Source of the DNA: a bacterium
GTDB lineage: Bacteria > Patescibacteriota > Minisyncoccia > Moranbacterales > UBA1568
NCBI GenBank assembly: GCA_021821305.1
Contig: JAKACP010000001.1
Location: 196,934 to 260,933 of the forward strand
DNA length: 64,000 nucleotides
Direction of reading: 5' to 3'
Positions 2,349 to 59,289 of this stretch are shown here, piece after piece (position 1 is the stretch's first letter; each line of letters starts with the position of its first letter). The notes beneath the pieces are model-generated. The model did no database searches. It was given only the letters and a program-made list of their open reading frames with translations, and had not been told where the DNA came from. Both the position numbers and the translations under genes were made by a program.

Positions 2349-2951
2349 ATGAAAATCGGAATCGATTTCGATGACGTGTTGTTTCATTTCGTACCGGCGT
2401 TCCTGCTGTATCACAATCGCATGCACGGGACGGACTTTTCGAAGGACGACGTATGGTCGTACCGTTTTTGGGAGGTGTTCGGTATCGCGAGAGACGAGGC
2501 GCTCAACCGCGTGTTCGCGTTCCTCGGTTCTCCGGAAGCCGAAGCACTGATACCGGTCGAGGGATCCCACAAGGGAATCGCTTCGCTCGCGAGAGATCAC
2601 GAGCTTCACATCATCACCGCACGGCAGGAATGGCTCGCCGAGGTGACGCATGGATTGCTGGAGCGGCACTTTCCGCCGGTCTTCTCCGGAGTGTACTTCG
2701 CCAATCATTTCTCCGACGATCGATCGGGATTGAGCAAGGGCGTGATCTGTGACCGGCTCGGTATCGATGTCTTCATCGACGATGCGCCTGCCAACGTGCT
2801 CGAGAGCGTACGCGCCGGAAGGAAGATCCTCCTCCTCGACGCCCCATGGAACACGTTCATGGATCCGATCGAGCATATCTCGCGTGTCCGCTCCTGGGAC
2901 GAGATCGTCGGAGCGATCGCGACCTTCGATTCCGAACGATCGGAACGATGA
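2349..2951 (+). CDS. HAD-superfamily 5'(3')-deoxyribonucleotidase-like protein
   Basis: N-terminal MKIGIDFDDVL contains the DxDxV HAD motif, with an NT5C-like layout. Confidence 0.65.
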   Translation: MKIGIDFDDVLFHFVPAFLLYHNRMHGTDFSKDDVWSYRFWEVFGIARDEALNRVFAFLGSPEAEALIPVEGSHKGIASLARDHELHIITARQEWLAEVTHGLLERHFPPVFSGVYFANHFSDDRSGLSKGVICDRLGIDVFIDDAPANVLESVRAGRKILLLDAPWNTFMDPIEHISRVRSWDEIVGAIATFDSERSER

Positions 2952-2952
2952 T

Positions 2953-2989
2953 TCCCGCCGCCTGTCATTCCAGGCGGCTTTTTTTTGCA
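2953..2989 (+). terminator. Rho-independent terminator
   Basis: Stem gccgcctg/caggcggc with tcattc loop, then tttttttt. Confidence 0.7.
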
Positions 2990-2990
2990 A

Positions 2991-3180
2991 GAGCCTGCCC
3001 ACTCCCTCACCGCAAAGATGAAAAAGGAAAAATCTCTTCTGCTTGTCGGCTAAAATTCCATCATTTCGGCTGCAAATCTCGAAAAGCTTGTCGAAATATC
3101 TCGATATTCCTCCTCACTTTTCAAAATTTTCGCTCAAAATTATGAAATTTTATACTCGACATGAGAGAGTGGTCAGGCTC
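2991..3180. repeat. Family-1 structured intergenic element, copy A (~190 bp)
   Basis: Ends gagcctgcccactccctca / tgagagagtggtcaggctc are complementary at 17 of 19 positions. Internal boxes tcaccgc, gcttgtcgg, tttcggctgcaaatc and ctcgacatgaga are shared with copies at 13439 and 55111. Confidence 0.6.
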
Positions 3181-7364: not shown

Positions 7365-8774
7365 ATGAAGAAAAAGCCGATCCAGAAGAAGACCAAGAAG
7401 GATATCCGCAGGAAACCGGCCGCCAAGAAACCGGCCGCGAAGAAATCCGCGCCGAAAAAGAAGCCGGTGGTCAGGAAACCTGCTCCGAAGAAGTCCGTGA
7501 AGAAGGCCGTGGCCGGAAAAAAGAAGGTCGCACCGAAGGCGTCGAAAAAGAAAGGCTCCAAGCCCGCGGCCAAGAAACCGGCCGCGAAGAAACCGACCCA
7601 GAAAAAATCACAGCCGAAAAAGACCGCCCGGAAACCGGAATCCGCCGCGAAGAAGGCCAAGGCGGCAATCATGGAGGGAAAGCAGGAGAGCGCGTTCGCC
7701 GAGCTCATCACCCGCGGCAAACAGCGCGGATTCGTGACGGAAGATGAGATCATCCACATCCTCCCGGACGTCGAGACCGATCTCGACGCGCTCGAGCGGC
7801 TCTACGGCGAGCTTGAGGAGGCCGGCGTGCGCGTGGCCGGATCCGACGAGATACTCAAGGTCGAGACCGACCGTATCGCCGATGATTTCGGGAAAAAGGA
7901 AGCCGCCGCCAAGAAGCCGTCGCGTCGTGCGGAGTCGGATGAGGACACCTCGGACCTCGTCCAGATGTACCTTCGCGAGATCGGCCGCGTCGCGCTCCTC
8001 ACCGGCGAGGAGGAAGTGAAGTACGCCAAGCTCATCGAGAAGGGCGATATGGTCGCCAAACAGCGGCTCACCGAGGCCAACCTCCGGCTCGTCGTCTCCA
8101 TCGCCAAGAAGTACGTCGGCCGCTCGCACAACCTCTCCCTCCTCGACCTCATCCAGGAGGGCAATCTCGGACTCTTCCGCGCGGTGGAGAAGTTCGACTA
8201 CCGCAAGGGATACAAGTTCTCGACCTACGCGACGTGGTGGATCCGTCAGGCGATCACCCGCGCGCTCGCCGATCAGTCCCGCACCATCCGTATCCCGGTG
8301 CACATGGTTGAGACCATCAACAAGTATTCCCAGGTGACGCGTCGCCTCGTCCAGGAGCTCGGCCGCGAGCCGCTTCCCGAGGAGATCGCCGCGGAAATGG
8401 GGATGGAGGTCGACAAGGTCCGCCACATCCAGAAGATCTCGCAGGAGACCGTCTCGCTCGAGACCTCCGTCGGCGACTCGGACGACGATTCGGTGCTCGG
8501 CGACTTCATCGAGGACACCGAGACTGTCATGCCGCACCAGTCGGCCGCCCGCAAGCTCCTCAAGGAGCATATCGGGGCTATCCTCGACGAGCTGACCCCG
8601 CGCGAGCAGAAGATCCTCAAGATCCGCTTCGGACTCGAGGACGGTATCACGCATACCCTCGAGGAGGTCGGACAGGAATTCGGCGTGACCCGCGAGCGTA
8701 TCCGCCAGATCGAGGCCAAGGCCCTCGAGAAGATCCGCGAGCACGACCACGTCAAGAAGCTCCGACACTACTAA
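7365..8774 (+). CDS. rpoD: RNA polymerase sigma factor RpoD with an N-terminal lysine-rich (KKPAAKK) extension
   Basis: Regions 1.2 through 4 are present: [20 protein letters not shown] and a 4.2 HTH ([20 protein letters not shown]). The N-terminal ~100 aa is a KKPAAKK-repeat tail. Confidence 0.9.
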
Positions 8775-12419: not shown

Positions 12420-12509
12420 TCCGTCCGGAGGGGAGGCGCGGCCCGGGCAGGGCCGCTTTTCTTTTCCGCCGTTTTGGCACACCATCGACAATCAGGTACA
12501 CTGTGGAGT

Positions 12510-13442
12510 ATGAACGAAGGGAAACATCCGGCGCTCGTCGTCGAACATGTGAAGAAAACCTACGCATCCGGGAAGGAGGCCCTGAAGGAGGTCTCGCTCG
12601 TCATCCCGGAGGGGGATTTTTTCGCGTTTCTCGGCCCCAACGGCGCCGGCAAGACGACCATCATCGGTATCGTCACGGGCATCGTCGACAAGTCGGCCGG
12701 GACCGTCCGGGTGTTCGGGTACGACATCGACCGCGAGCCGGAAAAGGCCAAGGCCTGTATCGGCGTCGTCCCACAGGAAATCAATTTCAATATCTTCGAA
12801 ACCCCGCTCGATATCATCGTGAATCAGGCCGGGTACTATGGGATCTCACGGAAAGAAGCCATACCGCGGGCCGAATCGCTTCTGCGGAGCCTCGGTATCT
12901 TCGACAAGAAGGACCAGGAATCCCGCGCGCTTTCGGGCGGGATGAAACGCCGGCTCATGATCGCCCGCGCGCTCATCCACAAGCCCCGATTGCTCATCCT
13001 CGACGAGCCGACGGCGGGCGTGGATGTGGACCTGCGCCGGAGCATGTGGGATTTCCTCCGATCGCTGACCGAGAAGGAGGGGATCACCATACTCCTCACG
13101 ACGCACTACCTCGAGGAAGCCGAACAGCTCTGCAAGCACGTCGCCATCATCCACCAAGGATCGATCATCGAGTCCGGATCGATGAAGGATATTCTCGGGA
13201 AGATCAACACCGACTCCTTCCTCATCACGCTCCGGTCCCAGGTGACGCCGGAAATCGTCGAAGCGCTCGCCGCGTATCGCGCGAAGAAGATCGACGAGAA
13301 GACGATCGAGATCGAAACGGACGACGGCCGCGGACTCAACGACGCGATCCTCCTCCTCAACGGACGGGGATTCCCCATCGGGGACATCCGGAACAAATCC
13401 GGCCGGCTCGAGGAAGTCTTCGTGAGGCTGACCGGTAAGTAA
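12510..13442 (+). CDS. ABC transporter ATP-binding protein
   Basis: Walker A GPNGAGKTT, signature LSGGMKRR, Walker B LLILDEPT. Confidence 0.85.
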   Translation: MNEGKHPALVVEHVKKTYASGKEALKEVSLVIPEGDFFAFLGPNGAGKTTIIGIVTGIVDKSAGTVRVFGYDIDREPEKAKACIGVVPQEINFNIFETPLDIIVNQAGYYGISRKEAIPRAESLLRSLGIFDKKDQESRALSGGMKRRLMIARALIHKPRLLILDEPTAGVDVDLRRSMWDFLRSLTEKEGITILLTTHYLEEAEQLCKHVAIIHQGSIIESGSMKDILGKINTDSFLITLRSQVTPEIVEALAAYRAKKIDEKTIEIETDDGRGLNDAILLLNGRGFPIGDIRNKSGRLEEVFVRLTGK

Positions 13443-13622
13443 CTGTCCGATATCTCACCGCCCTGAATAAAAGAAAAAACCATGCTTGTCTCATAAAACG
13501 TCCGGATCTCGGCTGAAAACCTCTCAAAGCTCGTCGGATTATCATGATAGTCCTTCTCCCTTTTCAAGGTTTTCATCTCGACATCCGAACATTTTCTCGA
13601 GACATGAGATATCGGACAGTTA
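13439..13622. repeat. Family-1 structured intergenic element, copy B (184 bp) between ABC ATPase and permease genes
   Basis: Perfect 19-bp terminal complementarity: gtaactgtccgatatctca / tgagatatcggacagttac. Conserved boxes tcaccgc, gcttgtctc, tcggctgaaaacc and ctcgagacatgaga. The left stem overlaps the upstream stop codon. Confidence 0.65.
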
Positions 13623-13635
13623 CTAAGGAAAACCT

Positions 13636-14412
13636 ATGAACGCGAAAAAACTCTGGATATCGTTCATGACCATCGTGCGCAAGGACGTGCTCCGTATCTT
13701 CAAGATATGGCCGCAGACGTTCCTGCCGTCCGTCGTGACGTCGGTCCTCTATTTCCTCGTGTTCGGCACCGTGCTCGGCGAGCAGATCGGCGACGTGGAC
13801 GGGTTTTCCTACCTGCAGTTCGTGGTGCCGGGGCTCGTCATGCTCGCGGTCGTGACGAATTCGTTCTCCGACGTCGCGACCGTCTTTTTCGTCTCGAAGT
13901 TCTTTTCGCGCAATATCGACGAGATCCTCGTCTCACCGACGCCACCCTCGGTCATCATCGCCGGGTTCGTCGGGGGAGGTATCGTCCGCGGCGTCCTGGT
14001 GGGAGCGCTCGTGCTCCTCGTCTCGGCGTTCTTCGTCCCGATCTCGTTCGCATACCCTTCGGTGGTACTGCTTTTCCTCGTCCTCTCGAGCCTCGTCTTC
14101 TCGCTCGCCGGACTCGTGAACGGCATCTACGCGAAGAGCTTCGACGGCATCTCCATCGTCCCGACCTTCGTGTTGACGCCGCTCGTGTATCTCGGCGGCG
14201 TGTTCTTCTCGATCGAGGCGCTGCCGGGATTCTGGCGTGATCTCGCGGCGGCCAATCCGATCTTCTATCTCATAAACGGGTTCCGATACGGACTGCTCGG
14301 CCTTTCGGACGTGCCGATCGCGACCTCTATCGCCGTCTTGGTCGGGCTCGCGGCGGCGCTCATCGCAGCCAACTGGTACTTCATCCGCACCGGGCTCGGG
14401 TTGCGGCAATAG
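13636..14412 (+). CDS. ABC-2 family transporter permease
   Basis: Six-TM ABC-2 permease topology immediately after the ATPase. Confidence 0.8.
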   Translation: MNAKKLWISFMTIVRKDVLRIFKIWPQTFLPSVVTSVLYFLVFGTVLGEQIGDVDGFSYLQFVVPGLVMLAVVTNSFSDVATVFFVSKFFSRNIDEILVSPTPPSVIIAGFVGGGIVRGVLVGALVLLVSAFFVPISFAYPSVVLLFLVLSSLVFSLAGLVNGIYAKSFDGISIVPTFVLTPLVYLGGVFFSIEALPGFWRDLAAANPIFYLINGFRYGLLGLSDVPIATSIAVLVGLAAALIAANWYFIRTGLGLRQ

Positions 14413-23854: not shown

Positions 23855-23992
23855 GAAAGCACAGGTCACAGAACACAAAACGCCAAACAAGACACAAAAT
23901 ATGAAATACAAACATGAAACCAAACATCCGCTTGTGCTTTGAGAATTGTGTTTTGTTTGGATTTTTGTGCTTTCGAACTTTGTGTTTTTAGC
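23855..23992. repeat. Family-2 AT-rich A/C-rich palindromic element, copy D, between the nrdD body and the glycyl-radical ORF
   Basis: Arms cacaaaacgccaaacaagacacaaaat / attgtgttttgtttggatttttgtg. Similar to copies at 45301 and 48456. Confidence 0.6.
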
Positions 23993-24274: not shown

Positions 24275-24445
24275 GCCCGCTCAACCCGGATTCCTTTCGT
24301 TCCCGACCGCATCCTCGCCGCCCGGTTTCTTCTTTTCAAAAATTTCCCTCAATCGACGGCATCTCGAGGAAATTTTTGAAGAAGAAACGGGCTTACTCGA
24401 GCAATATGCGGTTCCCGGCAAACGAAAGGAATCCGGGTTGAGCGG
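24275..24445. repeat. ~170-bp near-perfect palindrome (nested inverted repeats) upstream of nrdG
   Basis: acgcccgctcaacccggattcctttcgtt ... aacgaaaggaatccgggttgagcgggct. An inner pair ttcttttcaaaaatttcc / ggaaatttttgaagaagaa is nested inside. Confidence 0.7.
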
Positions 24446-24474
24446 GCTCAATTCCTTCTCCGTGACTCATCCGT

Positions 24475-45300: not shown

Positions 45301-45446
45301 CTTCGAAAACACGGTTTTCAAAACACAAAAAGCCAAACAAAACACGAAGCAAATACTGAAAGCACAAACCTCGCAATCTCGAAGTTTGTGCTTTGTATTT
45401 TGTGATTTGTTTGGACTTTGTGCTCTGTGCTTTGTGTTTTTTTGAT
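45301..45446. repeat. Family-2 AT-rich A/C-rich palindromic element, copy E
   Basis: Arms caaaacacaaaaagccaaacaaaacacgaagc / gtttgtgctttgtattttgtgatttgtttggactttgtgct. It starts at the xseB stop codon. Confidence 0.6.
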
Positions 45447-45484
45447 GGTATACTGGAAGAGAAAATACACACAAACGATACCGT

Positions 45485-47191
45485 ATGCGGCATTTCTATA
45501 ATGATCTTTCCATCGTGCTCGGCGGAGCGGCGGGGCAGGGCGTACAGACCGTCGAAGCGATACTCATGGCCGTGCTCAAGCGCGAGGGCTATCAGGTCTT
45601 CGCGTGCAAGGAATACATGTCCCGTGTCCGCGGCGGATCGAACTCGACCGAAGTCCGTCTCTCGTCGAAGAAACACCGTTCCTACGTCCGACGGATCGAC
45701 TTCCTCTTCGCGATGGACGGCAATGTCGTGGCGCATCTCTCCGATCGGATGAGCGACAAGACGATCGTGTTCGGGGAACGGGAGCGGATCAAGGAGTCTC
45801 CCGACCTTCCGCACTTCGTCGACACGCCGATGACCAAATTTGCCAACGAAGTCGGCAATCCGATCTTCGCGAACACCGTCGCGGTCGGAGTCATCCTCGG
45901 TATCCTCGGGGCGGAGGAAACCGTTTTTCACGCGTATCTCCGGGAATTCTTCGCGAGAAAAGGCGAAGAGGTGGTCGAGAAGAACATCGAGGCCGCGAAA
46001 AAAGGCTTCCGTTTCGGGAAGAACATCGCCTACCAGGAGGACATCGAGATAGGCCTTCCTCGCGATGAGAAATACACGAAGGAACTGCTCATCGACGGGC
46101 ATACGGCGCTCGGTCTCGGCGCGATCGCCGGCGGCTGTGATTTCATCTCATCGTACCCGATGTCGCCGGGGACGGGCGTGCTGACGTTCCTCGCGGAGAA
46201 AGGCGGCGAGTTCGGCGTCGTCGTCGATCAGGCGGAAGACGAGATCTCGGCGATCAACATGGCGCTCGGCGCGTCCTATGCCGGTGCGCGCGCGATGGTC
46301 TCGACATCCGGCGGCGGATTCGACCTCATGCAGGAAGGCATGTCGCTCGCCGGTATCATCGAGACGCCGATCGTGGTGCATATCGGTATGCGCCCGGGAC
46401 CGGCGACCGGACTGCCCACCAAGACCGAACAGGCGGACCTCAATCTCGCTCTCTATGCCGGGCACGGGGAATTCCCGCGTGCGATATACGCGCCGGGGAC
46501 GCCGGAAGAGGGTATAGCGATGATGAGCCGGGCCTTCGATACGGCCGACCGGTATCAGATTCCGGTGTTCATGCTCTCCGACCAGTATTTCCTCGACTCG
46601 CTCTCGGGCATTTCCGAATCATCGATAGCGCTGTCGCGGCCGAAGAAGCATATCGTCGAGACGGGTGCCGACTACGCCCGCTACCGGCTGACGAAGGACG
46701 GGATATCGCCCCGTGGTATCCCCGGATGGGGGCAGGGCATCGTGAAGGTGGATTCGGACGAACATGACGAGACGGGACACATCACCGAGAGCTACGAGAT
46801 CCGCGAGAAGATGATGGAAAAACGGATGAAGCGGCTCTCCGCGATGGCGAAGGATGCCGTCATGCCGACCGAGATGGACAATTATGCCGACGCGGAAATC
46901 GCGGTGGTATCATGGGGGTCGAATCGATCCGTGCTCGATGAATCCCTCGGTGCGGTACGCAGCAAGAAGCTCGGCGGGCTTCACTTCGCCCAGGTCTACC
47001 CGATCAATCCCAAGGTCAAGGACCTGCTCAAGGGGAAGAAGATCATCGTCGTCGAGAACAACCATCGCGGGCAGTTCGCCGATCTCCTCGTCCGCGAGCT
47101 CGGGGTCAAGATTTCCAAGCGGATCCTGAAATCGACCGGGGAGCCGTTCGCCGTCGAGGAACTCGTGGACACATTCAAACAATATGCCTGA
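45485..47191 (+). CDS. korA: 2-oxoacid:ferredoxin oxidoreductase, fused gamma-alpha subunit
   Basis: Gamma-domain N-terminus followed by an alpha domain ([12 protein letters not shown]). Confidence 0.85.
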
Positions 47192-48047
47192 AACCGGAAA
47201 AAAGAATTTCGATATGCCGCATGGCACCGACATCGCGTGGTGCCCGGCGTGCGGGAACTTCCCGCTCTTGAACGTGGTCAAACAGACGCTCTCGGAGCTC
47301 GGACTCGATCCCAAGGACCTCGTCCTCGTGTCCGGTATCGGACAGGCCGCCAAGACGCCGCAGTACGTCAACGCGAACATGTTCAACGGGCTTCATGGCC
47401 GCGCGTTGCCGGCGGCGGTCGGAATCAAACTCGCGAACCGCAATCTGACCGTCGTGGCGGAATCGGGCGACGGTGACATGTATGGCGAAGGAGGCAATCA
47501 CCTCACCCATACGATCCGCCGCAACCCCGACATCACGAACATCGTCCACAACAACATGATCTACGGCCTGACCAAGGGGCAGGCGTCGCCGACATCCTCC
47601 CTCGGCCTGCGAAATCCGATCCAGCCGAACGGAGTCGTCGTCGATCCGTTCAATCCGATGGCGGTGGCCGTCGCGCTCGACGCGTCGTTCGTGGCACGTG
47701 CGAATATCGGGGATATTCTCCAGACAAAAGCGATCCTCAAGCAGGCGCTCGAGTGGAAGGGGTATGCGCTCGTCGACGTCTTCCAGCCCTGCGTCGTCTT
47801 CAACAAGGTGAACACCTACGAGTGGTTCAAGGAGCATACCTACTATCTCCCCGACGATTACGATCCGACCGATAGGCAGGCGGCTTTCGCCAAGGCTTGC
47901 GAGACGGAGAAGATGCCGCTCGGTATCCTCTATAAGCACGAGCGCCCGATCTATGAGGACGAACTCGGCATCAAGGCCGACACCCCGCTCTATCGCCAGG
48001 AGCTCGACACGGAAAAATTGGAGGCACTGATGAAATCGTTCGTATAA
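47184..48047 (+). CDS. korB: 2-oxoacid:ferredoxin oxidoreductase beta subunit (TPP-binding)
   Basis: CPGCG-like WCPACGN and a [15 protein letters not shown] motif. Confidence 0.85.
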
Positions 48048-48455: not shown

Positions 48456-48575
48456 AAAAGAAAAACACAAATTTCAAAAAACAAAAACCAAACAAAGCAC
48501 AAATCCTAAAACACAAGCGGTTTGTAGACTGTGTTTTGTTTGGCTTTTTGTGTACCGTGTTTTGTGCTTTTGAAA
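48456..48575. repeat. Family-2 AT-rich A/C-rich palindromic element, copy F
   Basis: Arms aaacacaaatttcaaaaaacaaaaaccaaacaaagcac / gtgttttgtttggctttttgtgtaccgtgttttgtgc. It fits exactly between the ferredoxin stop and the DUF59 start. Confidence 0.6.
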
Positions 48576-55110: not shown

Positions 55111-55296
55111 GAGTCTGTTCAACATCTCACCGCTTTACATATAAAGGAAACCCTCTCGCTTGTCGTCCAATACTTCAGAATTTCGGCTGCAAATCATTTA
55201 TCACTCGTCGGCTTATCGCGATAGGCCTTCTTGCGATGCATGATGTTCGCTCGAAATTCTGAAGTACTGGCTCGACATGAGATATTGAACAGACTC
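55111..55296. repeat. Family-1 structured intergenic element, copy C (186 bp) between rrf2 and dus
   Basis: Ends gagtctgttcaacatctca / tgagatattgaacagactc are complementary at 18 of 19 positions. Boxes tcaccgc, gcttgtcg, tttcggctgcaaatc, ctcgtcgg and ctcgacatgaga. Confidence 0.65.
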
Positions 55297-58287: not shown

Positions 58288-59289
58288 ATGCGCACCGCGT
58301 TGTCAACAGGGAAAATCGGGTTTCTCGAACGTGTACTCCGTGATTTTTTTCGCCGGGCCGGACGGGAACACCTGCCGTGGCGCGCACGGACCGTCGGCGC
58401 GTACGAGATCTGGGTGAGCGAGATCATGCTTCAGCAGACCCAGGTATCCCGCGTGATCGGGTATTATGAAAAATTTCTCGTACGATTTCCGACGGTCGGA
58501 TCGCTCGCGAAAGCTACGTGGGAGGAGTTCCTCCCGTACTACCGGGGACTCGGGTACTATGCGCGCGGGCGGAACATGCTCGCGACCGCGAAGATGATCG
58601 TCGAAACGTATGACGGAAAATTCCCGAAGGACGTGAACGAGCTCGGGAAGCTCCCGGGCGTCGGGCCGTACACCGCGGCGGCGATCGCGAGTTTCGCCTA
58701 TGGAAGGAATACGATCGCGTGGGACACCAACCTTCACCGGGTCGTCGGGCGGTTCTTCTTCGGGTCGAGGCGAGCGGATCTTCCGAAGGAGAAATTGGAG
58801 GATATCCTTTCCATGAAGGCGAAGGTGTTCAATGCGGCGATGATGGATTTCGGCTCGGCGATCTGCACCGCGCGGCCGAAATGCGGCGCGTGCCCCCTCT
58901 CGTCGCGATGCGTATATTTTTCCGAAGACGGTCAGAGAGAAAAACAAGAGACAAGACACAAGAAACAAGATACAAAAATATCCAAAACCTCAAATAAAAA
59001 ATCCAAAATCAATTGGAGGGACGCACGAGCGTTCGTGTTCCTGCACGAGAACCACAGGAAATATTATTCGTCGCGCAAGACGAAGTTCGTGCCGTTCGCC
59101 ATCCCGCCGTCACACAACACGCGCGCCGGGGTCAAGGACTGGTTCCGTGATCGCCACGGACTCGAGCTCGCCGTCCGTCCGCCGCACAGGAAGGAAATGG
59201 TCGACGGCAAGCCGACGATCTTCATCAACGCGCAGATCCTTTCCGGAACGCCGGAATTCGCCGTCTTTCCCAAAGGTGTGTTGCCATAA
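58288..59289 (+). CDS. mutY: A/G-specific adenine glycosylase (MutY-like, HhH-GPD + 4Fe-4S) with a Lys-rich insertion and C-terminal extension
   Basis: HhH-GPD motif (LPGVGPYTAAAI) and an Fe-S loop (CTARPKCGACPLSSRC). The insertion QREKQETRHKKQDTKISKTSNKKSKIN is encoded by an A/C-rich stretch. Confidence 0.7.
   Translation: MRTALSTGKIGFLERVLRDFFRRAGREHLPWRARTVGAYEIWVSEIMLQQTQVSRVIGYYEKFLVRFPTVGSLAKATWEEFLPYYRGLGYYARGRNMLATAKMIVETYDGKFPKDVNELGKLPGVGPYTAAAIASFAYGRNTIAWDTNLHRVVGRFFFGSRRADLPKEKLEDILSMKAKVFNAAMMDFGSAICTARPKCGACPLSSRCVYFSEDGQREKQETRHKKQDTKISKTSNKKSKINWRDARAFVFLHENHRKYYSSRKTKFVPFAIPPSHNTRAGVKDWFRDRHGLELAVRPPHRKEMVDGKPTIFINAQILSGTPEFAVFPKGVLP

Follow-up and report, generated by a model that had tools for sequence, protein, structure and literature searches.

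A family of hairpin-forming miniature transposons at gene ends in Patescibacteria, probably of the IS5/IS1031 type

This report concerns a repeated element of about 185 bp, three copies of which (A, B and C) lie on the + strand of a 64,000-nt stretch of contig JAKACP010000001.1 (assembly GCA_021821305.1, positions 196,934 to 260,933), hereafter called the window. The host is a member of the Patescibacteria, the Candidate Phyla Radiation (CPR). The element is mobile DNA, a non-autonomous transposon of the kind called MITE (for miniature inverted-repeat transposable element), as judged from 3-bp target-site duplications, from empty sites in relatives, and from independent insertions in both orientations. 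I put at about 85% the probability that it is a MITE of the IS5/IS1031 type, mobile with a 3-bp TNA duplication; the mobility and the duplication are shown, and the family of the transposase is inferred. An initial annotation of the window had preferred a folded RNA, or a structured single-stranded DNA, to terminal inverted repeats (TIRs) recognized by a transposase.

Target-site duplications, empty sites and relatives

Relatives were collected in two ways. A pattern made from boxes in the interior of the element found 24 real copies in genome records, a set biased toward those boxes, and a pattern made from the right arm found at least 110 strong copies in metagenome contigs, a set biased toward the right arm. 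More than 130 copies were retrieved overall. The copies share ancestry, and their counts are not counts of independent events. All metagenome figures (the 84 unique copies, the stop-codon counts and the pair count on 19 copies) refer to copies among the matches listed.

The initial annotation saw no target-site duplications, a claim that did not survive. Copy B is flanked by TAA on both sides. Perfect 3-bp direct repeats flank 12 of 27 genome copies (shifting the register leaves 0-1; permutation p = 1e-4) and 68 of the 84 unique metagenome copies (TAA 37, TTA 24, TCA 5, TGA 2). All 68 have the form T-N-A, shifted registers give 0-3 matches, and direct repeats of 4 or 5 bp occur in none of the copies. 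In the metagenome copies the flanks read C(59%)-T(97%)-N-A(98%) before the element and T-N-A-G(67%) after it, so the target is a palindromic CTNAG. It is because the TNA target is nearly palindromic that the flanking bases seem to lengthen the stem, as the initial annotation had remarked.

Copy B lies at the junction of an ABC ATPase gene and a permease gene, and the same junction in related genomes may be empty or filled. Four lineages are empty: L032-34 (permease 93% identical to that of the window), L147 (93%), L148/149 (89%) and L035-37 (87%). In these the two genes overlap at ATGA, with a single TAA; L032 reads ...ccagTAAggaaaacctATGA. Three lineages are occupied, by different copies in both orientations: that of the window and L001 (permease identity "same"), that of L030/31 (95%), whose copy is 81.5% identical to B, and that of L146 (95%), whose copy is only 58-64% identical to the others and lies in the opposite orientation. 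The divergence and orientation of the L146 copy show that insertions at this one hot spot were independent. The permease genes of the occupied L146 and the empty L147 are 96% identical as DNA; the hot spot has therefore been struck repeatedly and recently.

The family shows the features by which MITEs are recognized: TIRs, a target-site duplication of fixed length, small size, multiple copies with no transposase open reading frame (ORF), and insertion polymorphism. A plain MITE had been characterized in the initial annotation by identical TIRs together with duplications. The duplications, along with the empty sites in relatives, are present, but the TIRs differ from copy to copy.

CPR genomes measure about 1 Mb and are generally said to contain little mobile DNA. 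Here is an abundant, recently active MITE family in such a host, with three copies in 64 kb, polymorphism between genomes that are about 95% identical, and repeated insertions at a single site. The copies in genome records come from metagenome-assembled genomes labelled, in the records' own terms, Ca. Moranbacteria/Moraniibacteriota, "uncultured Bdellovibrionales" or unclassified, while the nearest named homologues of the permease belong to Ca. Kaiserbacteria (69-72% identity). BLAST of copy B against the PLSDB plasmids and the INPHARED phages gave no match. Five copies (L176, L210, L211, L226 and L232) differ as elements but are followed by near-identical right flanks (91-98% over 43-124 nt), which suggests that another repeat family often adjoins the element.

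The element and the gene ends it occupies

The copies in the window, and the parts of copy B, are as follows.

Copy A, 2991-3180, + strand: 190 bp; flanked by CAA and TAA; the NT5C-like (+) and RRM (-) genes converge here, and the copy lies between their terminators
Copy B, full element, 13439-13623, + strand: 185 bp; first base G, last base C; orthologous sites in L032, L035, L147 and L148 without it
Copy C, 55111-55296, + strand: 186 bp; flanked by TAA and TTA; Rrf2-suf (-) and dus (+) diverge from the region in which it lies
Copy B, left target-site duplication TAA, 13436-13438: spans the ATPase codons ggT-AAg
Copy B, right target-site duplication TAA, 13624-13626
Copy B, left TIR GTAACTGTCCGATATCTCA, 13439-13457, + strand
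Copy B, right TIR TGAGATATCGGACAGTTAC, 13605-13623, + strand: complementary to the left arm at 19/19 positions
Copy B, present ATPase stop TAA, 13440-13442, + strand: nt 2-4 of the element
Copy B, A-rich asymmetric bulge in the left arm only, 13458-13486, + strand: CCGC...A-rich...GCT; sequence and length variable throughout the family
Copy B, inner hairpin TGTCTC...GAGACA, 13487-13603, + strand: apex TATC-AT-GATA at 13540-13549
Copy B, possible 11-codon ORF MRYRTVTKENL*, 13604-13639, + strand: starts at the family-invariant ATG (CATG); its TGA overlaps the permease ATG (13636)
Copy B, sigma-70-like site TTGAAA-18-GATAAT, 13538-13567, - strand: a match to the consensus only, 10/12, reading toward the left end

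A profile built from the relatives recovers all three copies by nhmmer, with E-values from 1e-40 to 1e-49 (2.4e-49 for B), and the alignment of A, B and C has a mean column identity of 77%. The initial annotation had rightly located the three copies and had ended copy B one base short, at 13622 rather than 13623. The internal boxes that it described are there, though not always in the form given: copy B reads ctcggctgaaaa and cgagacatgaga, copy A cttgtcga. The conserved boxes of the inner hairpin, as they appear in copy B, are TTCGGCTG(C/A)AAA and TTTTC(G/A)...CTCGAAAT. The copies are spaced 10 and 42 kb apart among housekeeping genes. Copy C occupies a divergent promoter region, and the TTA that flanks it on the right runs into the first ATG of dus (55299).

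TIRs are present in all 25 aligned copies. As the initial annotation had noticed, the terminal arms (19-20 nt) differ in sequence between copies and remain complementary within each: at 19/19 positions in B, 18/19 in C and 17/19 in A. The last 5 nt fall into three classes, GTAAC, GTATC and GAGCC. The copies are between 87 and 304 bp long and keep the same ends. Small GC-rich hairpins (e.g., CCCGCCCGAATCGCTACGCAATCGTTGCGGACGGGC and CACCCAGAGGGTGACCAACCTCTGGTTGGCG) are nested at fixed positions in the internal loops of some copies (L015, at 2900-3146, L165, L173, L221 and L028) and give rise to size classes of 205-304 bp. At the other extreme, three short derivatives of 87-106 bp (L164, L251 and L262) have the same ends without the central hairpin. 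L164 is flanked by TTC/TTC and L251 by TTA/TTA, while L262 is without a 3-bp direct repeat. Those with a duplication hint that the central hairpin is dispensable for mobility.

No ORF on either strand is conserved across the copies of the family. The GGAGG followed by ATG at the apex on the - strand is not conserved either, since the loop dinucleotide varies. These sites bear on the idea that each subfamily arose independently, by the folding back of one end of a different but related insertion sequence, so that the arms match by origin. The arms are indeed nearly perfect within each subfamily, and some copies do have the Shine-Dalgarno-like GGAGG and ATG at the apex of the - strand. Against this, neither the ATG nor the loop dinucleotide is constant, and the same asymmetries recur in every subfamily (the bulge in the left arm, CCGC as opposed to CATG beside the TIR, and the internal loops). 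Asymmetries common to all subfamilies imply a single asymmetric ancestor, and I regard repeated fold-back as very improbable. Copy A has a sigma-70-like site comparable to that of B (TTGAAA-18-GATATT, 3095-3124, - strand), again a match to the consensus only and directed toward the left end. No terminator-like site was found in copies B or C.

The initial annotation set copy B between the stop codon of the ATPase gene and the start codon of the permease gene. In fact the ATPase frame (ORF 12474-13442, Pfam ABC_tran) runs into the element and ends at its nt 2-4, so that the C-terminus, formerly ...KLTASKENL*, is now ...RLTGK*. Copy B landed in an out-of-frame TAA within the last ATPase codons, costing the protein three residues and supplying a new TAA. 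The insertion also parted the ATGA overlap with the permease gene and so presumably broke the translational coupling of the two genes, leaving copy B to be co-transcribed, in all likelihood, as a 185-nt hairpin between them. For annotation, this means that copies can change the ends of genes, as with the C-terminus of the ATPase, and interrupt translational coupling within operons. The 11-codon ORF re-enters the old ATPase frame, with the same geometry in L030. There is no Shine-Dalgarno sequence before the invariant + strand ATG, and from its sequence the ORF is a possible coding unit in copy B.

Ending at the element is common among the flanking genes. Among the flanking ORFs of 100 or more codons, 51 end from -30 to +9 nt from an element boundary. 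Of these, 32 end exactly at the junction, and no other distance accounts for more than 2 ORFs; about a third of the copies sit exactly on a stop codon. The stop is the target-site duplication itself (TAA or TGA) in 17 of the 32, TA completed to TAG by the G of the element in 14, and nt 2-4 of the element in one, copy B. One strand of CTWAG has TAA and the other TAG, and an element that begins with G and ends with C therefore restores both stops after insertion. I take it that gene ends thereby become neutral places for insertion in genomes whose spacers are very short. The combination of a C-TNA-G target with G...C termini, allowing the element to land on stop codons without damage, would explain how it can proliferate where genes leave almost no room between them.

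The hairpin and the covariation of its arms

The three copies in the window each fold into a single long imperfect hairpin, with minimum free energies of -70.0, -54.9 and -79.9 kcal/mol and z-scores, relative to dinucleotide shuffles, of -9.9, -5.1 and -11.6. Just inside the terminal stem is the A-rich bulge of about 29 nt, found on the left arm only. RNAalifold applied to 25 copies gives 54 pairs, 29 of them with two-sided changes. In this set 94.7% of the cells are paired, compared with 83.1% in column shuffles, and there are 164 double-change cells compared with 52; 0 of 500 shuffles came as high as what was observed. Sliding the structure by 1-3 columns reduces pairing to 29-49%. The initial annotation had pointed to a second covarying pair within the hairpin (tgtcG/Cgaca in A and C, tgtcTC/GAgaca in B), and it holds in the larger set, where columns 77/214 have UA in 15 copies and GC in 10.

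The first set had been chosen by its interior boxes, and the count was therefore redone on 19 non-redundant copies that had been picked on the right arm alone. In this second set each column of the mid-stem and apex still has 3-5 pair types, which makes the covariation real and extends it well beyond the TIRs. The arms covary along the whole hairpin, including its centre.

Covariation of this extent is what one would expect if the element were primarily a structured RNA, a cis-regulatory hairpin or a small RNA, with its fold under selection and its mobility incidental. Other observations favour that idea. T·G wobbles on the + strand are conserved (columns 100/165 and 125/138, also 107/119) though neighbouring pairs covary, the internal loops and the sequence boxes TTCGGCTGCAAA / TTTTCGCTCGAAAT are conserved, and copy B lies within an operon and is presumably co-transcribed. 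There is also a precedent in bcr1, a repeat that is transcribed and has compensatory changes (PMC3184786).

Several observations speak against it. Orientation relative to the flanking genes is mixed (6 copies in the same orientation as both, 8 opposite to both, the rest mixed), and copies lie both ways round at the one ABC site. In an RNA under selection, G·U is normally much better tolerated than A·C. Among the 1140 pair cells of the right-arm set, 1078 are Watson-Crick, and the remainder are G·U in 20 cases, A·C in 21 and another mismatch in 21, so that G·U is no commoner than its alternatives. The terminal helix of the first set has 3 G·U cells to about 30 other mismatches, with one-sided changes nearly absent. 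The short derivatives that lack the central hairpin retain the ends, and two of the three have 3-bp direct repeats. Nor does either strand stand out: although the RNA of the - strand is the more stable in 27 of 27 copies, the z-scores are equal (-9.99 for -, -9.94 for +). I rejected the stability of the - strand as evidence of strand, since shuffled controls shift by the same amount, an effect of G+U composition.

The initial annotation had advised a check against known RNA families, and the folded element lies outside them. With Rfam 15 only two tRNAs in the window reach the gathering score, and a permissive scan of copy B turned up chance snoRNA and lncRNA matches with E of at least 0.56. 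On balance I consider a primarily RNA function unlikely. Of the preference for a folded molecule over a TIR, one part stands, in that covariation does extend past the TIRs. The other does not: the element is a transposon, and evidence specific to RNA is absent. Covariation by itself does not identify an RNA gene.

The lack of a G·U preference and the symmetry of the constraint between strands fit a cause at the level of DNA, and the complementarity looks DNA-level rather than RNA-specific. With DNA parameters the element has the potential to form a hairpin over its whole length (-37.3 kcal/mol, z = -8.6). A structured single-stranded form, as the initial annotation had envisaged, is possible, as is homogenization of the arms within DNA.

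One rival reading makes the element a transposon of single-stranded DNA, moving in hairpin form, either an IS200/IS605-type palindrome-associated transposable element (PATE) or some other element driven by an HUH enzyme. The whole-length DNA hairpin and the symmetric complementarity would suit such a mechanism, and no DDE partner was found in the searches made. Yet IS200/IS605 elements and PATEs have neither TIRs nor target-site duplications and insert 3' of a fixed tetra- or pentanucleotide, whereas here the TIRs are perfect, 3 bp are duplicated and the target is palindromic, and the window contains no Y1 or HUH gene. It is hard to give this mechanism any appreciable credence.

Another possibility is that the covariation has no function and that the arms are homogenized by intramolecular template switching or hairpin-templated repair, the established mechanism of quasi-palindrome correction. 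This is compatible with the element being a MITE and concerns only the reason its arms covary. It is supported by changes that are nearly all two-sided (one-sided changes number 0-2 per pair in helix 1), by a strand-symmetric mismatch spectrum, and by copies with degenerate target-site duplications (L018, L024, L026 and A), in which arm mismatches are no more numerous than where the duplications are perfect. What it fails to predict is the persistence of imperfections. Three of them are conserved across divergent subfamilies, and correction should have erased them: the one-sided bulge of about 29 nt, a 3x3 internal loop (in TTCGGCTGC/GCGAGCGAA, inside the conserved boxes TTCGGCTGCAAA / TTTTCGCTCGAAAT) and the T·G of the apex stem. 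Moreover, B and the L030 copy differ at 11% of paired positions and 32% of unpaired positions, which looks like constraint, though the two copies may not be orthologous. I consider correction a serious contender, if somewhat short of an even chance.

B and L030 were also considered as a compensatory pair arising in situ. The case is not decisive, as a hot spot leaves orthology unproven, and no other diverged orthologous pair was found among the collected copies. The family nonetheless offers a clean data set on whether the complementarity of MITE arms is due to selection or to templated correction.

It is also conceivable, though I am doubtful, that the shape of the arms rather than the sequence of the TIRs is the unit selected and recognized, making the element a mobile structured nucleic-acid module. 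If so, the shape would either be needed for mobilization, through recognition by a structure-specific enzyme, which would explain how tips can differ while arms stay paired, or be put to use by CPR hosts as a portable hairpin that processes or insulates mRNA at gene ends.

The transposase, known systems and other features of the window

Within the IS5 family, the IS1031 group has a preference for TNA and generates direct repeats of exclusively 3 bp, and one of its members, ISLrh, has the inverted repeat GAACCTGTCTAGTATCT (PMC12016507; PMC1676026). The GAGCC-class arm GAGCCTGTTCAATATCT matches that repeat at 13/17 positions, in the terminal register. The 3-bp TNA duplication and the likeness of the arm to ISLrh together indicate a transposase of the IS5 family, IS1031 group. 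MITEs of that group resemble the element in their TNA target, 3-bp direct repeat, multiple copies and lack of coding capacity, with element TIRs of about 17-20 bp beginning GA(A/G)CCTGT... The element departs from them in having several TIR classes, a whole-length hairpin with covarying arms, and CPR hosts.

The ends and TWA duplications of IS903 and of the eukaryotic PIF/Harbinger-Tourist elements are similar to those of the family. Tourist and PIF-Harbinger MITEs likewise duplicate 3 bp of the form TWA (TAA/TTA), have tips rich in GC (GGCC/GAGCCTGTT type), are small and have a strong potential to fold back. Tourist elements are eukaryotic, and the likeness comes from a transposase superfamily in common, IS5/Harbinger, rather than from membership.

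If the IS5/IS1031 assignment is right, the element would be mobilized in trans by an IS5-family DDE transposase closest to those of the IS1031 group. The enzyme would bind the terminal inverted repeats of about 19 bp, cut the palindromic C-TNA-G with a 3-nt stagger and duplicate TNA, and the G and C at the ends of the element would rebuild the stop codon into which it inserted. The arms would be kept complementary over their full length at the DNA level, perhaps by selection for hairpin or cruciform formation, perhaps by quasi-palindrome template-switch correction.

Four points weigh against that assignment. The likeness of the TIRs is to one published inverted repeat of the IS1031 group. The terminal 5 nt differ between the classes GTAAC, GTATC and GAGCC, which is unusual for the ends used by one DDE enzyme. 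Covariation at the centre of the element is not explicable by the binding of a transposase to TIRs. Finally, and this is the chief gap, no autonomous insertion sequence or IS5-type transposase was found in the 64-kb window, in about 1.2 Mb around some 140 copies, or in viral contigs. A Pfam scan of the window (ORFs chosen greedily, longest first) gave only housekeeping, copper-resistance and suf genes, with no integrase and no Y1/HUH gene. The 1.2 Mb held no TIR-bounded insertion sequence and no IS5-like motif, and a scan of six-frame translations of all loci for the motif DxG[YF] found no transposase-like match. In the viral contigs the three TIR patterns had only chance matches, and nhmmer found no copy.

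Two kinds of candidate were examined and set aside. TIR-like tips that face each other 400-3500 bp apart (L193, L233) belong to two separate copies with host genes in between. In the viral contig scans, a candidate of 805 bp in L139 is without a transposase-like ORF.

Among bacterial repeats, the Correia elements of Neisseria (CREE/NEMIS) are MITEs of 100-155 bp that are co-transcribed, can carry promoters, and have TIRs whose RNA hairpin is cleaved by RNase III. They differ from the present element in their TA duplication, fixed-sequence 26-bp TIRs and site for integration host factor, and in lacking a whole-length covarying hairpin. ERIC elements also have a TA target. The element itself has a 3-bp TNA duplication and TIRs of a different sequence from those of Correia elements. 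As a functional analogy to copy B the Correia elements are nonetheless the best, for both insert at gene ends and inside operons (PMC3184786). By this analogy the element may behave like Correia or ERIC elements when co-transcribed.

The ERIC/IRU repeats of enterobacteria share with it a whole-length imperfect palindrome (about 127 bp or more) and a place in transcribed intergenic regions, but their sequences are unrelated and they show no evidence of recent mobility. The bcr1 repeats of the Bacillus cereus group are similarly mobile, of about 155-185 bp, flanked by direct repeats and distributed without conservation of genomic position, and base-pair compensatory changes are reported to preserve their long double-stranded fold (PMC3184786). 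They differ in their 5-bp direct repeat, unrelated sequence and Firmicutes hosts, and in having been shown experimentally to be transcribed.

In the PATEs of IS200/IS605, in REP/BIME sequences and in the attC sites of integrons, hairpin structure similarly outweighs sequence, yet none combines TIRs with a 3-bp target-site duplication. The element, with its perfect TIRs and 3-bp duplication, is accordingly distinct from PATEs. REPs are only 20-40 nt long, and attC sites lie in cassette arrays beside an integrase, whereas the copies described here are 10 and 42 kb apart in a window without one. The element is a new MITE family, unusual in its CPR hosts, its stop-codon-neutral target, its several classes of tips and the complementarity of its arms along their whole length.

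Other repeats are found in the window. At 2189-2302 is a perfect 57-bp tandem duplication of the 3' end of the tRNA at 2120-2204, giving three copies of AATCCCGCCTCTTCCGC, which looks like the att-site remnants of an integrative element. A different whole-length hairpin of about 173 bp, with perfect 27-nt terminal inverted repeats (GCCCGCTCAACCCGGATTCCTTTCGTT), lies at 24275-24447 between nrdD and the radical-SAM activase gene and may represent a second MITE-like family. G/T-rich intergenic repeats (TTGTGCTTTGTATTTTGTG...) occur in both orientations at 23877-23973, 45320-45451, 48461-48548 and 58941-58979, and one inverted pair of them brackets the pyruvate:ferredoxin oxidoreductase genes (45485-48047). 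The sigma-70 gene (7365-8774) encodes a long N-terminus of repeats rich in Lys, Ala and Pro, with 15-nt periodic repeats at 7394-7638.

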